In this document: piece by piece, positions 8,349 to 16,518 of the stretch
How the letters are laid out: every line of letters starts with the position of its first letter
How positions within the stretch are numbered: the stretch's first letter is position 1
NCBI RefSeq assembly: GCF_003334305.1
Contig: NZ_QOWS01000034.1
Source: Escherichia coli
Lineage (GTDB): Bacteria; Pseudomonadota; Gammaproteobacteria; Enterobacterales; Enterobacteriaceae
Length of the DNA: 35,359 nt
Reading direction: 5' to 3' (one strand)
Position numbers and translations under genes: made by a program
Notes under the pieces: generated by a model
What the model was told of the DNA's origin: nothing
Database searches by the model: none
Seen by the model: only the letters and a program-made list of their open reading frames with translations

Positions 8349-8425
8349 GGAGCGGTAGTTCAGTCGGTTAGAATACCTGCCTGTCACGCAGGGGGTCGCG
8401 GGTTCGAGTCCCGTCCGTTCCGCCA
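8349..8425 (+). tRNA. aspV: tRNA-Asp (GUC anticodon)
   Basis: Sequence identical to the tRNA-Asp at 125..201. Stand-alone tRNA downstream of dnaQ, as for aspV in K-12. Confidence 0.95.
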
Positions 8426-8755: not shown

Positions 8756-9541
8756 ATGAATTCAAAAAAGCTTTGTTGCATATGTGTGTTATTCTCGCTG
8801 CTTGCAGGATGTGCCTCTGAATCTTCTATTGATGAAAAGAAGAAAAAAGCTCAAGTCACACAAAGTAATATTAATAAAAACACTCCCCAGCAACTGACAG
8901 ACAAAGATTTATTCGGTAATGAAACCACTCTGGCCGTATCCGAAGAGGATATTCAAGCTGCGCTTGATGGAGATGAGTTCCGCGTTCCCCTTAATTCTCC
9001 TGTAATACTTGTTCAATCCGGCAACCGCGCACCGGAAACCATTATGCAGGAGGAGATGCGAAAATATTATACTGTTTCCACATTCTCTGGTATCCCGGAC
9101 AGGCAAAAGCCTCTGACTTGTAACAAAAACAAAGATAAAAATGAGAACGAGGATGTTGCCAGTGCTGAGAATATGAACTGGATGCAGGCACTGCGTTTTG
9201 TGGCTGCAAAAGGACATCAGAAAGCGATTATTGTTTACCAGGATACATTGCAGACAGGAAAATATGACTCTGCGCTGAAATCAACAGTATGGTCCGACTA
9301 TAAAAATGAAAAACTCACCGACGCTATCTCCCTGCGCTACCTGGTACGTTTCACGCTGGTGGATGTGGCAACAGGTGAGTGGGCTACCTGGTCGCCGGTG
9401 AATTATGAATATAAAGTGCTTCCACCATTGCCCGACAAGAATGAAGCCAGTACGACTGATATGACAGAGCAGCAAATCATGCAACTTAAGCAAAAGACCT
9501 ATAAAGCGATGGTAAAAGATTTGGTTAACCGCTATCAATAA
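8756..9541 (+). CDS. yafT: Uncharacterised lipoprotein (YafT-like)
   Basis: 261-aa ORF with a lipobox (LLAGCAS). Same size and position as K-12 yafT just after aspV. AT-rich. Confidence 0.7.
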
Positions 9542-9677
9542 TAAATTATATCTGCCGCCAGGAATTTCTGGCGGCAATAATACAAAATTCTTTGCATAAG
9601 AAATTTTTCTTGACAAAGACAGTGCAAGAAAGGACATGGAATCCGGAGTTAAAAACTGTTTGTTTTAGAATATTTAA

Positions 9678-10157
9678 TTATTTAACTGCTGAATCTTCCT
9701 TGCGAGAAATATATTCATTATTACATTTCATGCCATTTTTAATATAGATTGCTCCTGGGAAAATCCCCGTATTATTACCGCAGGGGTGATAATTAGCATT
9801 GACATATCCTGTGACAAAAGGAGCTATTAAAGGTGCTATTACGATAGCTATTAGTAAAAATATAAGAGTTAGCTGTATTGTTATGTCTGTGGCGAAATTG
9901 ACTACCTTCGTTTTTTTGATTAAGAATGATTTTATTATCGTAAGTAAAATTACATGAACATTTAAAAAGGAAAACGACATGAAACCAAAGCACAGAATCA
10001 ACATTCTCCAATCATAAAATATTTCCGTGGAGCATTTTATTATTGAATATAGAGGTTTAACTCCGGTAAAAAACAAAGAAGCATTGAATGCAGGGAAAAA
10101 TAATATGGCCATAAAAAACATCGAAAGAAACTCTTTTAATTTAACATGTAAACGCAT
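9678..10157 (-). CDS. ykfM: Small multi-pass inner-membrane protein (YkfM-like); candidate immunity protein
   Basis: 159-aa ORF with about three strongly hydrophobic segments. Starts 9 bp after the stop of the upstream glycine-zipper protein. Very AT-rich. Same size as K-12 ykfM. Confidence 0.6.
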   Translation of the reverse strand: MRLHVKLKEFLSMFFMAILFFPAFNASLFFTGVKPLYSIIKCSTEIFYDWRMLILCFGFMSFSFLNVHVILLTIIKSFLIKKTKVVNFATDITIQLTLIFLLIAIVIAPLIAPFVTGYVNANYHPCGNNTGIFPGAIYIKNGMKCNNEYISRKEDSAVK

Positions 10158-10166
10158 GGTTAATCC

Positions 10167-11096
10167 TCATATCACGGGTGGAGTGTTAAGAACATACATA
10201 AATGGAGTCATGTTTTCCCTTTTCCATTTATCAAGTTCCTGTTGCCGTTTTAGTCCATCTCTAATTGCATATTTTAATTTTTCTGATAAATGGCATTGAG
10301 CATCGATTTCATTTAAAACAACTGTACACACTATCCCTGTCAGTAAAATTGCTCCTCCGACAAGAATTACTGGAAAGCCAAAGCTAACACAGGCAAAAGA
10401 AGCCAGGCTTCCAATAGCGGTTGCAACACCACCGGCTATAACTGCTTTGGCCACATCCATTGAAAAATCGCCAAGAAAATTAACCAGATCTCGCTCTGAA
10501 CTCATAATAAATTCTATGGTTCTCCAGGCTACTGAAAACCAGATACAGAACTTAACTCCTTTTATTGATTCAGATAAAGCTCCTCGCCAGCCAATAGCGA
10601 GTTCCAGAACTTGAGGCGCTCGTGAAGAGAAAATATATTTACCGAGCTTTTCTAAAAGCCAGGGGCTGGATGTTGTGATTTTTATATATTTCTCTCCAAG
10701 TATTTCAAAGTAACTTGCTTTTGTATACTTTAAGGCATTAAGGTTAAATATAATTTTCCCATTGTCATCAAACTCAGTCATTAATTTACTCGCGTTAACT
10801 AACCAGGCGAGTGTATCTTTTATACCTGAAGGATGTGTAGTGATAAAATGAATGTAATCAAATGATGTTATTGGGCTGAGTATTTTTTTTGCAACATCAA
10901 GTGTCAAGAGAATAACATGATGAGTGTTCTGATGCCTTAACTCATCAATGAGTGGGACGTCGTTAAGATAAGGGTGCTGAGGTACTAGCTGGTTTATCGG
11001 CTGAGCCCCCCGAAGAATGTCACCCACATAATCAGCCCACTGTGCATTCTGTGTGTTGTTGTTATTCCTTAAACCAGCCATTTTATCTCTCCGCAA
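10167..11096 (-). CDS. Hypothetical protein with C-terminal glycine-zipper hydrophobic region; candidate Hcp-associated membrane-active T6SS effector
   Basis: 309-aa ORF (start may be the ATG at 11081, MAGLRNNN). Soluble N-terminal part followed by AVIAGGVATAIGSLASFACVSFGFPVILVGGAILLTGIVCTVV. Begins 28 bp after the hcp-like gene and is followed 9 bp later by the membrane protein. Confidence 0.5.
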   Translation of the reverse strand: MRRDKMAGLRNNNNTQNAQWADYVGDILRGAQPINQLVPQHPYLNDVPLIDELRHQNTHHVILLTLDVAKKILSPITSFDYIHFITTHPSGIKDTLAWLVNASKLMTEFDDNGKIIFNLNALKYTKASYFEILGEKYIKITTSSPWLLEKLGKYIFSSRAPQVLELAIGWRGALSESIKGVKFCIWFSVAWRTIEFIMSSERDLVNFLGDFSMDVAKAVIAGGVATAIGSLASFACVSFGFPVILVGGAILLTGIVCTVVLNEIDAQCHLSEKLKYAIRDGLKRQQELDKWKRENMTPFMYVLNTPPVI

Positions 11097-11124
11097 TAGT
11101 AATTTATTATGTTATTACAGTAAG

Positions 11125-11607
11125 TTACTGTACACGATCCTGCCATTTACTCATTGCATTCGTACCGGCTAACGTATGCTCCCAGGAAATATCTTCATAA
11201 ATAAAGGCAATTCTCTCCTGTGGTTCCAGTTCTTTTTCCAGGACAGCATGCGGTGTGACAAAATCAATACTTGATATTCGGGCTTTTGACAGATTTATTT
11301 TATAATAAGGCTGGTAAATACCCGCTTTACTGGTTCGGTAGAGTATAAATTCACATATTGCCATTTTTTCATTGTCACTAAGTGCTTTTGCCAGCAATGG
11401 TGAGGATTTATCAACCGGTTTGGTGATAATTAATTCATGATGATTGACATTTTGACTTCTTGAGATGGAATGCATTAACGCATAAACCATGATCTGATCT
11501 TTATGTTCTGGCTGCGCTTTGTTTCCGACAGAATCAAGCGTTGAGCAACCTGCTGAAATTAGCCCTTGTGTCTCTCCACTCAAAGATAAATAACTTATAT
11601 TTGCCAT
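11125..11607 (-). CDS. Hcp-family protein (second, orphan hcp outside the hcp-vgrG operon)
   Basis: 160-aa ORF. Shares several spaced motifs with the Hcp at 31693..32211: Y-S-GxTQG-I-AG, DSVGN, KPxDKSSPLL versus KPFIF...AVPLM, WEH near the C-terminus. Confidence 0.7.
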   Translation of the reverse strand: MANISYLSLSGETQGLISAGCSTLDSVGNKAQPEHKDQIMVYALMHSISRSQNVNHHELIITKPVDKSSPLLAKALSDNEKMAICEFILYRTSKAGIYQPYYKINLSKARISSIDFVTPHAVLEKELEPQERIAFIYEDISWEHTLAGTNAMSKWQDRVQ

Positions 11608-11630: not shown

Positions 11631-12983
11631 TTATTTTTCGGCCGTGGTACCGGTTGCCGCCTCTGGCATGACGTTATTCTTCAGCAGCAGCCAGCGGCTT
11701 AACACGCCTTCGAGTCGCTCATTAATTTGTTTTTCCAGCGCATCTGTATTCTGCTTCTGCGCACGGGCATCATGGTACTGCGTCAACAGAGACTCAACGG
11801 GTGTTTCCTGCCCCAGTCCCCGCTCCGCCTGCCAGATGACATTTTTGATATAGGAAAGGGTTAGTCCCTCTTTCTCGCGCTGCATCACTAGATCTGCAAA
11901 AGCATGTAAGTCCTGGCGGGTCTGCAACCAGCCACGCAACTGCGGGCTACTCTGTGCGCGGGTTTTGAGTGCCTCATTCCATTGTGTCGAGGCCTGTTGC
12001 TGTTGCAGGCTTTCCGGCCAGCGACTGTCGGCAACACGCATCATCTGCATCCCGGTTTCCAGCGGCTGTACCGGGGAGGTATCAAGAAGTTGTTGCAGCC
12101 TGCGCTCATAGTTTTCGAGTTCAGGTGAGGCCATCCACACCGTTGCTGCGCCCTGAGCGGTGTCGTTAACCTGTAACAGTTGCTGCTGCACCGGATAGAC
12201 CTGCCACCACCACAATGCTGAGGCGACAGCCACTGAACAGGCGATCCCTGCGATAAACCCTCTTACCGTACTGCCTTGATTTATCACACTGGCCTGTGGG
12301 GGATTCTCTGTCAGACTGCGAACTTCCACTTTCATCTCAGGCAGGCCGGGCAGGGGAGGCACTACCGCTTCTGGTGTGGAAGATGCCTGTGTTTCCGGGG
12401 CATAAATCAGCGTTCTGACCGTGGTCTGTGCGGCGTTCTCAGTGTTACTCTTCAGCTGGGGTCCAAGCCGTTTACGCGTGTTCTGCATAAAATAGAGCAG
12501 ATTCTCCACGCGCGGAACGCGCTTCAGTTCCACCTGCTGGAGCTTATCGCAGATAAGCTGCAATGCCCGCTCTGTGCGGTAGATCAGTGGTAGGTCGGAT
12601 TCCGCAAAGGAGATTTGCTGACGCAGAATATTGCCGGTTCGGGAGTTAAACCAGTCCAGCATTTCAGTACGCGCCGGGCCGCCCTGCGGCCAGAACTTAT
12701 CCCAGTCGTGGCTTACCATTGCCGCCAGCAGTTCCGCACCTTCGCAGAATCCCGCCAGTCCCTGTGTCCGTGTCCGGGCAAGCGTATAGTAGGTGGCGGT
12801 GTGTAAATCCACACCGTTGGCTTTAAAAATCGCCAGCGCCAGCGACTCCACCAGTTTCCAGTTCAGCTCAGGCTGTGACGGGTGGCTGGCTTTGTTTATT
12901 TCCTCGCGGATGGCGCTGAATTCCGGCAGCCCGCGCGGGTCACTGCCGGTAACGATAGTTTGTGTCAGTACGTTACTATTCAT
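11631..12983 (-). CDS. T6SS accessory membrane protein with ImpA_N-like N-terminal domain (VasL-like)
   Basis: N-terminal region resembles the ImpA-N/TssA family. Central hydrophobic segment (FIAGIACSVAVASALWWW). Start trimmed to the ATG at 12981..12983, which has a GGAGG ribosome-binding site and sits 10 bp after the tssM stop; the track ORF over-extends into tssM. Confidence 0.55.
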   Translation of the reverse strand: MNSNVLTQTIVTGSDPRGLPEFSAIREEINKASHPSQPELNWKLVESLALAIFKANGVDLHTATYYTLARTRTQGLAGFCEGAELLAAMVSHDWDKFWPQGGPARTEMLDWFNSRTGNILRQQISFAESDLPLIYRTERALQLICDKLQQVELKRVPRVENLLYFMQNTRKRLGPQLKSNTENAAQTTVRTLIYAPETQASSTPEAVVPPLPGLPEMKVEVRSLTENPPQASVINQGSTVRGFIAGIACSVAVASALWWWQVYPVQQQLLQVNDTAQGAATVWMASPELENYERRLQQLLDTSPVQPLETGMQMMRVADSRWPESLQQQQASTQWNEALKTRAQSSPQLRGWLQTRQDLHAFADLVMQREKEGLTLSYIKNVIWQAERGLGQETPVESLLTQYHDARAQKQNTDALEKQINERLEGVLSRWLLLKNNVMPEAATGTTAEK

Positions 12984-12993
12984 CCCTGCCTCC

Positions 12994-15900
12994 TCAGTAC
13001 AGTGTGTCTGACAGACCAAACTGGCTGAACAACCCACCGCTGAACGGGTTATCTTCCGTGTCGGTATGCACACGGTAGGTCATCGCGCCACCGTCCACGC
13101 TAAAGCGCACGGTAAAGTTGCCATCCTGTACTCCGGTCAGTTGTCCGGCCCCGAACAGGCGGAACTGCGCCCACGGCCCGCTGAAGCTGATACTGCGCGG
13201 CGCGTTGCCGCTGGTGCCGATGAGCGTCAGCTTACTTTCGTTGCCTTCGCGCATGTTGTTAGGCCAGACCAGATGGGCGGTATAGTTACGGCCCTGGCTG
13301 TAATCGACTAACTGACCGTCAAGGTTCAGTACACTGCGGCGTTTATTGCCTGAAAGCGATACCGTTTCCACGGCAAAGGATGTTCCCAGACCGTTCTGTT
13401 TGCTGAAGAAGATGTCACGGATTTTCTGCGCAGTTTCCAGTTGCGCAATAATATCTTCGCGAATAATGACGTTGTTATCGCCATCCTCCAGACTCAGGTC
13501 ATTATCGATAAACAGCTTCAGGTTCTGCTGGTAGAAGGTATCCAGTATGCCATCCGGTTTAAAGAAGCGTTCGAAGGCATCCAGTGAGGCATCCTGTGCA
13601 GAACGCGGATTAAACGGATAGTTATTTGCCAGTTGCTCGTTAAACGGTTTCACCACGCTGTCGCGCCAGTCCACTTCCATATAATGAACAGCCTCCACCA
13701 TCACCACATGCCAGGCCTGGTCAGCCAGCCTGCCAACCCAGCGGTTGAGCGGAGCAGGCAGCGTTTTTGCCATCTGGCGGGTGGCGAATATCGGATCGCT
13801 GCTGTTCTGATCAAGCCGTAACTGCACGGCTTTCAGCGCCGATTTCCCTGGTACAGGCGCGTTCTGGATTGCCAGCAGGTAGCGGTGCAACTCGGTGAGT
13901 TGCTGATACACGGCCTGCATCGTGCTTTCTTTGTCTTTCTGTACTGCCAGGGTACTGTTTTCCGGGGCGAATTCATGCCCGAGGCGGGTGAGTAACTGGT
14001 AATCCGGCTCTGCCAGGGCTTCCTCCCGTTCTTTGGCAGAGAGTTTTTCAGAAAAGACGCCTGGCTGTGTGTTGTCACGCAGCACGGTCAGCGCCCGCTG
14101 CAAAGGCTGGTCGCCGCTGATAACCTGCTCCAGCGCCCCGGTCAGTTGTCCGATGGACTCAAAATTGCGGATATTCAGATTGTCCATCCCAGCCCGCCAG
14201 GTGGCGGTGTAGTCGCTGATATACTGCTCGGTCAACTGGTGCTGGATTTCCGCACGGTCGGCGTCACTGTATTTCACATTGCGGGTGAGGTTAAGTACCC
14301 AGGAATCCATCGCTGTCAGTTCAACCAGTTCATCGCGCTGTTTTACAAAATAGCTTTGCAGGCCGTAGCGGGTGATAAACTGTGGAACAACCAGTTTGTT
14401 GTCATCGGCAGATGTAAACACCTGGTCAAAGGTTGGCCCTACCTGGTCACGCAGATTGAGGTCGGCAGGAAGAACGCCCAGCGCCCGCGTTTTCAGGCTC
14501 TGGTAAACCCGCTGGTAGACAGGCAGTTTGCTCAGTTCTTTCTGTGCTGATACCACGGGCTTGTCATATGGCGTCCAGCGGCTGATGGCGTCACCGTCGC
14601 CCGCCTGACGCTCTGCATGCCAGTCAGTATGAGCCAGCGCGTAGTCAAGATGGGACATCAGTTGTGCCTGGATATCGCGCTGGCCGTGGAATTTTTCGCT
14701 CCAGCGTTTTGCCATATACTGCTTCACCACCTCATTGTTACGTCCGCTTTTGTCCTCCAGCATTCGCATTACGCGCAGCACCGCGAGTTTTTCTTCACTC
14801 TCCGGCGGCGCGGCGTTCATCGCTTTGACCAGCCCGTTAAACAGCGAGGGCAGGTAACGTTGCTCCAGCAGTTGCAGATAGGTCTGTTCCACATAAGGCC
14901 CGATACGTCGTCCCTGGTACAGTCCCATATCGGCCAGACGGCTGCGGTCGCCCCAGTCGCCATAGGCCAGTGTGGCATCGCGTACCGGGTTCAGGAGCGG
15001 CAGTTGCAGGTTGCCAAAGTCATCTTCCCCCTGCGGAGGCGGCACGTCCATAAAGGCTTTGGCCTGCTTAAGCACGGTGATGCCGGACTGATAGTTACCG
15101 TTGTAATAGTGATGCCAGCCGGTGATGAGCAGCAGTGCTGCCACGCCGCCTGTGGCAGAGAAAACCGTCAGGCGGCGACGGGAACGTATCAGCCAGGCGC
15201 GGCTCTCTGTTGCCAGATTAGGCTCTGCGAGTAATGCCTGCGGGAACAGGCTGCGGGTGAAATAAGGCGCGGTGTCCACCAGGGGCCAGGACGCCAGTGG
15301 GTTATTGCCCAGCCGGTACTGGCGGGCGGCAGACTGGGTGAATATATCATCCATCTGCCCACGCTGAAGCGAAGAGGTGAGATAGACACCACGCAGCATA
15401 ACGTTCATATTTTCGCCATCAAGCAGACCCTCAAGCAGTGACACCAGCGGTTCACGGCTTCCCTGCATCTGGCGGGAAAAACTGAATAAAGACGCGCGGG
15501 TGTGAGTCTGAGCGACCATCAGATCCGGCAACGCCAGATTCATTCGATCCACCCATGTCTGCCAGAAAGCATTCAACTCTGTTCGCCAGTCATCATTTTC
15601 ATGGGCACGGCGGGTGAACGTGACGCCCAGAATCGCATCGCGATCCTGTCTGTTGAGTGACTGGAACAGGGCGGCAAAACCCTGTAATAAATCAAGCCGG
15701 GTCAGTACCACGTAAACCGGTAACTGGCAGTGAAGATGCTGGCGTATATCCTGTAAGCGGCTGCGCAGCGTCTGTAACAGATGCTCGCGGCGGCGTTTGT
15801 CTGCGGTCAGCAGATCGGGTAAATCGAGTGTCAGAATAATCCCGTTCAGCGGCTGGCGCGCGCGCTTTTCTTTCAGCCAGCCGAGGGCATGTTCCCACAG

Positions 15901-16518
15901 ACGGCGATGCAGGATATCCGCATCAGCGGGAGCGCAGAGTGTGCCGTCGATATCAAAGATCACCGCCTGTTTACCGACATGGGGCGTGAGGTACAGGCGT
16001 TGTTCTGCGCCGCGTGCGCCCTCCGGGGCATAAATAATGTCGGACGGAAACCCCTCGCGCAGCAGTGTCGTTTTGCCACTGCCCGCCGGGCCGATGACCA
16101 TATACCACGGCAACTGCCACAGGAAACGGCGGTTGTCGAGATGGCGTTGCAGGCGCAGCAGCCAGCGGTCGAGGTAACGCTGCTGGGCGTTCAGTTCCAC
16201 ACTGAGCGGATCAATGGCTTCCTCGCGCTGTTGTTTTTGCTGTTTTTCAAGCTGTTGCAGGCGCTTCATTACCCGGACGGTAAGCCACACCAGGGCAATA
16301 ATCCCCCACGCCGCCGTTGCCAGCCAGCGGTTCGCCAGTGGTTTGAGCCACTGCTCTTCATACAGCGTCCACGTCGGGCCTTTCCACCAGATCCAAACCA
16401 GCAGGAAAATCCACGCCAGTATCAGCAGCCAGAATGCAGAGACTTTAAATCGGGGCATCGCCGGGCGCAGGGCTGATTTGAGTCCGCTGAATAGTCGGGG
16501 TGTTGGTAATCTGAACAC
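12994..16518 (-). CDS. tssM: T6SS membrane complex protein TssM (IcmF family)
   Basis: 1174-aa ORF with N-terminal transmembrane segments, a Walker A P-loop (GPAGSGKTTLL) and a long periplasmic C-terminal region. Position and size typical of IcmF/TssM. Confidence 0.9.
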   Translation of the reverse strand: MFRLPTPRLFSGLKSALRPAMPRFKVSAFWLLILAWIFLLVWIWWKGPTWTLYEEQWLKPLANRWLATAAWGIIALVWLTVRVMKRLQQLEKQQKQQREEAIDPLSVELNAQQRYLDRWLLRLQRHLDNRRFLWQLPWYMVIGPAGSGKTTLLREGFPSDIIYAPEGARGAEQRLYLTPHVGKQAVIFDIDGTLCAPADADILHRRLWEHALGWLKEKRARQPLNGIILTLDLPDLLTADKRRREHLLQTLRSRLQDIRQHLHCQLPVYVVLTRLDLLQGFAALFQSLNRQDRDAILGVTFTRRAHENDDWRTELNAFWQTWVDRMNLALPDLMVAQTHTRASLFSFSRQMQGSREPLVSLLEGLLDGENMNVMLRGVYLTSSLQRGQMDDIFTQSAARQYRLGNNPLASWPLVDTAPYFTRSLFPQALLAEPNLATESRAWLIRSRRRLTVFSATGGVAALLLITGWHHYYNGNYQSGITVLKQAKAFMDVPPPQGEDDFGNLQLPLLNPVRDATLAYGDWGDRSRLADMGLYQGRRIGPYVEQTYLQLLEQRYLPSLFNGLVKAMNAAPPESEEKLAVLRVMRMLEDKSGRNNEVVKQYMAKRWSEKFHGQRDIQAQLMSHLDYALAHTDWHAERQAGDGDAISRWTPYDKPVVSAQKELSKLPVYQRVYQSLKTRALGVLPADLNLRDQVGPTFDQVFTSADDNKLVVPQFITRYGLQSYFVKQRDELVELTAMDSWVLNLTRNVKYSDADRAEIQHQLTEQYISDYTATWRAGMDNLNIRNFESIGQLTGALEQVISGDQPLQRALTVLRDNTQPGVFSEKLSAKEREEALAEPDYQLLTRLGHEFAPENSTLAVQKDKESTMQAVYQQLTELHRYLLAIQNAPVPGKSALKAVQLRLDQNSSDPIFATRQMAKTLPAPLNRWVGRLADQAWHVVMVEAVHYMEVDWRDSVVKPFNEQLANNYPFNPRSAQDASLDAFERFFKPDGILDTFYQQNLKLFIDNDLSLEDGDNNVIIREDIIAQLETAQKIRDIFFSKQNGLGTSFAVETVSLSGNKRRSVLNLDGQLVDYSQGRNYTAHLVWPNNMREGNESKLTLIGTSGNAPRSISFSGPWAQFRLFGAGQLTGVQDGNFTVRFSVDGGAMTYRVHTDTEDNPFSGGLFSQFGLSDTLY

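Follow-up and report, generated by a model that had tools for sequence, protein, structure and literature searches.

A second Hcp, a Tme homologue and YkfM in an Escherichia coli type VI secretion cluster: a predicted Tme/Tmi effector-immunity module

Background

Fridman et al. 2020 (PMC7046647) described Tme, the family of type VI membrane-disrupting effectors. The Tme domain is C-terminal and contains an almost invariant DxxK motif, behind which a transmembrane helix (TMH) is predicted that is flanked by an aspartate. The corresponding immunity proteins, Tmi, have three to six TMHs and are DUF1240 or DUF1240-like. [quoted passage not shown] Intoxicated cells lose their membrane potential and take up propidium iodide without lysing, and only the cognate Tmi rescues them. 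For Tme1, the N-terminal 55-60 residues form a RIX domain that is necessary and sufficient for secretion. Fusions to PAAR, VgrG or MIX occur among other Tme proteins (PMC7046647). Here we compare with these systems three adjacent genes of Escherichia coli, encoding a second Hcp, a 304-amino-acid (aa) protein and YkfM. They lie in a stretch of 35,359 nucleotides from contig NZ_QOWS01000034.1 (assembly GCF_003334305.1), the whole of which we call the window.

The three genes had been singled out from the letters of the window as a candidate module consisting of a membrane toxin, a membrane immunity protein and an Hcp. Our analysis leads to the same reading, by way of the published Tme/Tmi table. 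The original prediction did not recognise a characterised toxin family in the protein; the 304-aa protein is a tabulated Tme member.

An E. coli trio in the Tme table

The genes, in the order in which they would be transcribed, are the following.

11125-11607, minus strand: second Hcp (TssD), 160 aa, 18.0 kDa, last gene of the T6SS core operon
10167-11081, minus strand: tme homologue, 915 nt, 304 aa, 34.0 kDa, predicted T6SS membrane-disrupting cargo effector
9678-10157, minus strand: ykfM, 159 aa, 18.1 kDa, isoelectric point 9.5

As predicted, all three are on the minus strand between aspV/yafT and the T6SS core. The toxin had been given 309 aa, with 28 bp between it and hcp. Both values presuppose a start at the TTG of position 11096. 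RefSeq starts the gene at the ATG of position 11081, which is preceded by GGAG at a distance of 7 nt, so we take the toxin to be 304 aa long and the hcp-to-toxin gap to be 43 bp. The toxin-to-ykfM gap of 9 bp stands.

In the E. coli rows of Supplementary Data 5 of PMC7046647, the Tme protein is WP_000908057.1, 304 aa, with the domain at residues 122-277 (E 3.15e-36). Upstream, 43 bp away, the table has WP_001284199.1, an Hcp of 160 aa; downstream, 9 bp away, it has WP_001236649.1, of 159 aa and three TMHs. The toxin, the Hcp and YkfM of the window are identical to these three accessions. Hence the exact trio has already been catalogued, and neither the family, nor its membrane-disrupting activity, nor the DUF1240-type immunity, all described in 2020, is new. 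The enterotoxigenic E. coli (ETEC) strain TW10722 is included in the same table. In RefSeq the toxin is still labelled 'hypothetical protein', and its neighbour is labelled 'protein YkfM'. We consider it highly probable that the triad is the E. coli member of the Tme/Tmi effector-immunity family, accompanied by an Hcp, and that the module works in the manner proposed below.

The 160-aa protein is indeed a second Hcp: it matches TIGR03344 (TssD/Hcp) with an E value of 2e-60 and 203.4 bits (cut-off 58.9) over residues 1-157. Its identity to the main Hcp of the cluster (31693-32211) is 29-30%. It had been called an orphan Hcp, a term we drop. Its gene begins 23 bp past the VasL/TagA-like gene in the same orientation and is therefore the last gene of the core cluster.

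The toxin domain

Several parts of the toxin need to be told apart.

10947-11081, minus strand: conserved N-terminal motif W..Y.G.ILRG.QPINQLVPQHPYL, codons 1-45, candidate delivery or loading region
10251-10718, minus strand: Tme toxin domain, residues 122-277 (published limits)
10446-10457, minus strand: DxxK motif, D209-V-A-K212, signature of the Tme domain
10302-10445, minus strand: hydrophobic helical hairpin, residues ~213-258, with a break at G-F-P 235-237, then D260

Membership in the Tme family follows the tabulated significant match, to which the window protein is identical, and the domain is C-terminal as in the published family. Our own profile, made from nine homologues and searched against 1.84 billion representatives, agrees. 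It found 700 representatives at E<1e-3, and most of the distant ones aligned at positions ~120-280, matching the published domain. Among longer homologues the N-terminus is a PAAR domain (E ~1e-40) or the N-terminal part of a VPA1263-type T6SS effector, in agreement with the published Tme architectures. When Tme1 (WP_015297525.1) was sought among the profile matches, the only match of 310 aa was a Desulfamplus protein from a metagenome-assembled genome. Association with the T6SS is given by the Hcp gene 43 bp upstream, inside a complete T6SS cluster.

The DxxK motif, a hydrophobic transmembrane segment after it and a flanking aspartate (D260) are all present in the window toxin. D209 and K212 are invariant in the nine homologues, and an alignment of 116 diverse sequences shows conservation of 90% or more at G129, G164, G175, D209, K212 and D260; two further flagged columns were left out, the window protein having S138 and L143 there. 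Close homologues are few: a word-indexed search found them in Salmonella enterica (62%), in Rahnella (39%) and among sequences from metagenomes. Pfam, NCBIfam and PADLOC gave no match to the 304-aa protein.

The hydrophobic stretch that had been predicted for the C-terminus is real (residues ~213-258, with Kyte-Doolittle windows up to 2.7), and the published table places a TMH at 234-256 by Phobius. Its description as rich in glycine zippers fits only loosely: the stretch contains neither GxxxG nor GxxxGxxxG. What it has is a ladder of small residues spaced by three others, A216/A220/G224/S228, within 213-228, partly conserved among homologues. AlphaFold models of the toxin had a predicted local distance difference test (pLDDT) score of 46 with 9 sequences and 77.9 with the 116-sequence alignment. 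The latter model has a C-terminal domain of four long helices, 165-193, 199-234, 238-263 and 265-290, with pLDDT 83-96.

At the other end of the protein, even homologues with no more than 35% overall identity retain all of Y18, G20, L23, G25, N30, P34, H36 and Y38. By analogy with the RIX tag of Tme1, this 45-residue motif is a candidate delivery or loading region.

YkfM, the predicted immunity protein

The third gene had been predicted to encode a multi-pass membrane protein. Hydropathy reveals three hydrophobic segments, and the published Phobius topology, i12-32o52-75i96-119o, has three TMHs. The tail that follows the third TMH has four residues, Y123, C126, Y138 and C145, that do not vary among 10 homologues with identities as low as 16%. 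The published topology places this cysteine-containing C-terminal tail on the periplasmic side, where the toxin arrives.

In the searchable literature, DUF1240 is mentioned by Fridman et al. 2020 alone. YkfM is presumably DUF1240-like, by transitivity. It has no Pfam match of its own, but proteins 51-66% identical to it match PF06836 (DUF1240). When the alignment of 10 homologous sequences was compared with PF06836, one member matched at E<=0.001 and four at E<=0.1. By homology, YkfM is predicted to be a Tmi immunity protein of DUF1240-like type.

Related loci in other genomes

We looked at nine related loci, meaning loci that carry Tme homologues with the shared N-terminal motif. A DUF1240 or DUF1240-like gene follows the effector gene in all nine. 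In six a 159-160-aa Hcp gene lies within 1 kb of the effector. The 160-aa Hcp of the window is 52-74% identical to the Hcps that accompany Tme homologues in Salmonella, in Rahnella and on three further contigs. Some Tme homologues form isolated pairs with their immunity genes, at a distance from all T6SS genes.

In the Salmonella locus L003 (GCA_027232745.1) the VasL, Hcp and effector genes come in the same order as here. The gene that follows encodes a 149-aa protein annotated as DUF1240, with 51% identity to YkfM. Three of the nine loci (L003, L013 and L014) have additional or duplicated copies of the immunity gene.

In L003 a second module, at 9523-11010, lies behind the first Hcp-Tme-Tmi set. 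Its effector copy is of another subtype and is frameshifted into open reading frames (ORFs) 9523-10095 and 10052-10534; an intact DUF1240 gene of its own (10555-11010) comes next, and then yafT. This is the orphan-module pattern typical of polymorphic toxins. At the DNA level the sole match of the E. coli toxin gene to this second Salmonella module is its N-terminal coding region, 130 nt at 77%. Apart from those 130 nt, complete E. coli genomes lack this second effector type and thus have one Tme type at this locus. Tandem DUF1240 genes follow the Tme homologues in two other loci, three genes in L013 (5860-7140) and two in L014 (5957-6775), which suggests accumulation of immunity genes.

Two further sequences concern the Hcp gene. 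In strain STEC17-190 (NZ_CP075649.1, 4040344-4043001) the match is in two pieces spanning ~457 extra bases, and the annotation has two Hcp coding sequences, which suggests that a duplication or an insertion took place where hcp meets tme. In eukprot, a set of eukaryotic proteins, a 295-aa protein, P0008, combines an Hcp Pfam domain with a segment that is 90% identical to the E. coli Tme. Most likely it is E. coli contamination with a merged gene model.

How the module may work

By homology, the E. coli toxin should act like Tme1 and Tme2, with YkfM as its immunity protein. The attacker would make the 304-aa Tme homologue in its cytoplasm and load it on the tube or spike of the T6SS by way of the toxin's conserved N-terminal region; the likeliest carrier is the neighbouring, presumably dedicated 160-aa Hcp. 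Fired into a neighbouring Gram-negative cell, it would act from the periplasmic side, as Tme1 and Tme2 do. The C-terminal Tme domain, with its DxxK motif, hydrophobic hairpin and aspartate, would then insert into the inner membrane, dissipate its potential and permeabilise it without lysis; these steps, too, are carried over from Tme1 and Tme2. YkfM, presumably an inner-membrane protein with three TMHs, would be the cognate Tmi and would protect sister cells in an allele-specific manner, as Tmi1 and Tmi2 do.

A number of observations weigh against this scheme. The N-terminal half of the toxin is modelled by AlphaFold with low confidence. In the PDB the toxin has no sequence relative, and a fold search found only generic helical bundles. 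YkfM has no match in NCBIfam or PADLOC and none in Pfam even at E<=10, hence no direct match to DUF1240. The sole reported phenotypes of ykfM concern stress lethality and are unrelated to the T6SS: a ykfM::Tn5 mutant of laboratory E. coli (wild type DM4100) differs from its parent in how it is killed by four agents, namely nalidixic acid, mitomycin C, peroxide and sodium dodecyl sulfate. The searchable literature contains no link of ykfM to a T6SS and no experiment on the E. coli toxin/YkfM pair, nor is the pair listed in three T6SS papers that focus on E. coli (on enterohaemorrhagic E. coli, EHEC, from 2017 and 2020, and on ETEC from 2023). As for loading, it is from gene linkage that we infer that the 160-aa Hcp carries the toxin. 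Three of the nine related loci have no Hcp gene within 5 kb. Cargo of the Hcp lumen, of the Tse1-4 type, binds inside the Hcp hexamer, depends on Hcp for its stability and is reportedly below ~25 kDa as a rule (Silverman et al. 2013), and the toxin is of 34 kDa. Finally, when the N-terminal 68 residues were sought in fusion with other toxin domains by an insensitive word-index search, only fragments of the same E. coli protein were returned. These last three points may speak against classical lumen loading.

The last of these points bring up the strongest alternative. The pair may be a Tme/Tmi pair that is loaded on the VgrG/PAAR spike or by an unidentified adaptor, the 160-aa Hcp being an alternative tube subunit or having a separate role. 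Fusion of other Tme proteins to PAAR, VgrG or MIX would fit such a route, and so would Tme1, whose N-terminal RIX tag is not a known Hcp interaction; the loci lacking a nearby Hcp and the size of the toxin count on the same side. What tells against it is the linkage itself, which favours loading in the Hcp lumen: in six of nine loci this Tme subfamily comes with a distinct subclass of Hcp, whose members are 52-74% identical to the 160-aa Hcp of the window, against 30% for the main Hcp. In three of those six (Rahnella L004, L012 and L013) the stretch that was examined contains no T6SS core genes; for L012 this is a contig of only 2.7 kb. Moreover, the three-gene module contains no adaptor gene of the DUF4123, DUF1795 or DUF2169 type. 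We regard spike or adaptor loading as possible and rather unlikely.

Distribution in E. coli and the K-12 remnant

Distribution was counted in 5426 complete E. coli genomes, with presence of the triad defined by at least 80% coverage. The whole triad is present in 2544 of them (~47%), ykfM in 2998 and full-length tme in 2562.

The two genes differ in their variation across E. coli genomes. For ykfM, identity is at least 99% in 1413 genomes and 95-99% in 1657; for tme the corresponding numbers are 2602 and 390. The immunity gene is thus the more polymorphic of the two.

The original prediction stated that K-12 lacks this T6SS and keeps yafT and ykfM at aspV, and this is correct. YkfM of K-12 has three substitutions relative to the window (V67I, A121T and E148G). 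The toxin gene is not completely gone.

10523, minus strand: K-12 breakpoint in tme; codons 187-304 kept (window 10167-10523)

The remnant comprises the last 118 codons of tme, 100% identical, and abuts an ISAs1 transposase fragment, which is followed by yafV. We take the remnant to be the pseudogene known as yafU. In two natural isolates, ET979 and ST12468, the toxin gene is truncated by IS1 at other places, so that 684 nt and 43 nt of it remain, and ykfM is intact. Together with K-12 this gives three different insertion sequence (IS) truncation points, none of which reaches ykfM. The three strains share one ykfM allele and the ISAs1 element beside yafV, so they may descend from one deletion lineage. 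We infer that the T6SS and most of the toxin gene were lost in strains such as K-12 through IS-mediated deletions, with ykfM remaining as an orphan immunity gene. The retention of ykfM in K-12 is consistent with that role, and the idea of an orphan immunity gene, already raised by the original prediction, fits a ykfM that stands beside a toxin remnant cut by ISAs1.

This has a consequence for published work on E. coli. The EHEC paper on KatN gives z0248 only as an Hcp. An in-silico effector survey of EHEC treats hcp1 and not the gene after it. The ETEC study (PMC10761095) reports 'no cargo effectors' and uses MG1655 as prey; TW10722, which carries the triad, showed no T6SS-dependent inhibition of MG1655. 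Since MG1655 carries ykfM, that result is uninformative about the Tme homologue. If YkfM is protective, any contribution of the Tme homologue would be masked in these assays.

Alternatively, the module could be a silent relic: AT-rich, H-NS-repressed DNA that rides on the island and plays no part in competition today. Its GC content of 31-39%, the strong repression of the EHEC aspV T6SS by H-NS under laboratory conditions, and the fact that TW10722 carries the triad yet does not inhibit MG1655 could all be read in this way. The last of these loses its force with a prey that has ykfM. A relic also sits poorly with three ORFs that are intact in about 2600 genomes, with a tme at least 99% identical in 2602, and with preserved ribosome-binding sites. 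We find this explanation improbable. Less probable still is a reading in which the 304-aa protein serves the T6SS as a membrane-anchored accessory or structural part and YkfM is a housekeeping modulator of stress lethality. In its favour, the toxin gene does lie inside the T6SS operon, and nalidixic acid, mitomycin C and peroxide kill the ykfM::Tn5 mutant more readily. Against it, homologues exist as isolated pairs remote from T6SS genes; they vary behind an N-terminus that is conserved, and duplicated immunity genes come after them; PAAR fusions of the same domain exist; and the validated family members are toxins.

The effector-immunity reading can be extended. K-12 ykfM may be a functional orphan immunity gene, the 159-160-aa Hcp subclass may be a dedicated Tme carrier, and this Hcp may recognise the N-terminal 45 residues as a tag. 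Taken jointly we put this forward tentatively, as somewhat less than an even bet; none of its three elements appears in the searchable literature. If it is true, the standard laboratory prey is pre-immunised against an effector of ~47% of sequenced E. coli, which would explain why the effector was missed in E. coli T6SS competition assays. The N-terminal motif would then act as a novel tag for delivery by a specific Hcp, in the manner of RIX, MIX or FIX.

The surrounding T6SS cluster

Along the window, which is a segment of the E. coli chromosome, the order is dnaQ, tRNA-Asp, yafT and then a complete T6SS cluster on the minus strand, with TssM, TssA, VasI, TssL, TssJ, TssE and TssBC. It is the aspV-linked T6SS (E. 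coli 'T6SS-2', group i1), and the module is at its 3' end. The following features surround the module.

125-201: tRNA-Asp(GTC), another copy, 8 kb from aspV; presumably aspU, at the end of an rRNA operon
8349-8425: tRNA-Asp(GTC) aspV, insertion site of the island
8756-9541, plus strand: yafT, lipoprotein gene that flanks the Hcp-toxin-ykfM module, at the boundary next to aspV
9552-9577, minus strand: terminator-like GC-rich hairpin between the convergent ykfM and yafT, a consensus pattern match only
12994-16518: tssM
30496-30996, minus strand: tssB
31693-32211, plus strand: main hcp, divergent from the core cluster
32421-34562: vgrG, adjoining the main hcp

The contrast in base composition that had been predicted is clear. 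GC content is 0.385 for hcp, 0.388 for the toxin gene and 0.308 for ykfM, against 0.559 for the core cluster, and because it is so far below that of the core, this AT-rich module was probably added to the T6SS cluster as cargo. yafT also adjoins the Tme/Tmi module in L003 and in L010 and therefore marks a conserved boundary of the island. Its label in RefSeq varies by genome: 'aminopeptidase', 'lipoprotein YafT', 'lipoprotein' or 'hypothetical protein'.

A scan for promoters and terminators did no better than shuffled sequences, with the single exception of the hairpin 3' of ykfM, which by the consensus scan has a 10-bp stem with 7 GC pairs. The VasL/TagA-like ORF (11631-13073, 480 aa from a GTG) overlaps the 3' end of tssM by 80 nt. 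The RefSeq protein has 450 aa, in agreement with an internal ATG start (M31, MNSNVL...). Between the divergent tssB and main hcp there is an AT-rich trough (31001-31500, GC 0.32), probably the regulatory and H-NS-bound region of the cluster.

What the finding means

The biology of this pair is not new, and the value of our analysis is in annotation and in the design of experiments. The pair is known at the level of a family catalogue and is easy to overlook in work on E. coli. Competition assays with derivatives of K-12, which are the usual prey and have the immunity gene, may be blind to this effector. The link between an Hcp subclass and the N-terminal motif offers a starting point for tests of the way in which a membrane toxin of 34 kDa is loaded. 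What remains beyond the catalogue is modest and testable: a possible orphan immunity gene in K-12, a putative dedicated subclass of Hcp and the conserved N-terminus.

Comparison with known systems

The nearest relatives of the module are Tme1/Tmi1 and Tme2/Tmi2 of V. parahaemolyticus (PMC7046647), with which the toxin shares the C-terminal Tme domain, the DxxK motif, the TM helix and the flanking aspartate. As with Tme1/Tmi1, the immunity gene is immediately downstream and encodes a presumably DUF1240-like protein with several TMHs, the toxin has no signal peptide, and there is an association with the T6SS. Unlike Tme1, the E. coli toxin has an N-terminus with no relation to RIX, a domain found only in Vibrionaceae and Moritellaceae, and with a conserved 45-residue motif of its own. 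Tme1 is also an orphan effector, in contrast to the E. coli toxin, which is inside the main T6SS cluster and directly follows what may be its dedicated Hcp.

A second comparison is with Tse4/Tsi4 of Pseudomonas aeruginosa, another membrane-depolarising T6SS cargo effector that acts from the periplasm and is paired with a membrane immunity protein, as is predicted here. Tse4 is a pore-forming, glycine-zipper toxin for which Hcp-dependent loading is established. We detect no sequence similarity between the two; the E. coli toxin is larger, at 34 kDa, and has a ladder of small residues where Tse4 has a zipper, with no GxxxGxxxG. Fridman et al. likewise regard Tme as distinct from Tse4 and VasX (PMC7046647).

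With VasX of V. cholerae, Ssp4/Ssp6 of Serratia and Tke5 of P. putida the E. coli toxin would share the expected outcome, a loss of membrane potential. These proteins differ from it in belonging to other families and in being delivered by VgrG or MIX. Neither the Pfam and PDB sequence searches nor the fold search matched the toxin to VasX, Ssp4/Ssp6, Tke5, the colicin pore domain, ClyA or Tse4.

Orphan immunity genes are known from T6SS auxiliary clusters of V. cholerae, from acquired immunity islands of Bacteroidales and from the orphan modules of contact-dependent inhibition (CDI) and Rhs systems. Although protection by an orphan ykfM is here putative, unlike in those cases, the pattern is similar: E. 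coli strains that lack the T6SS keep ykfM beside a decayed toxin gene, and in Salmonella a second immunity gene is kept behind a frameshifted effector.

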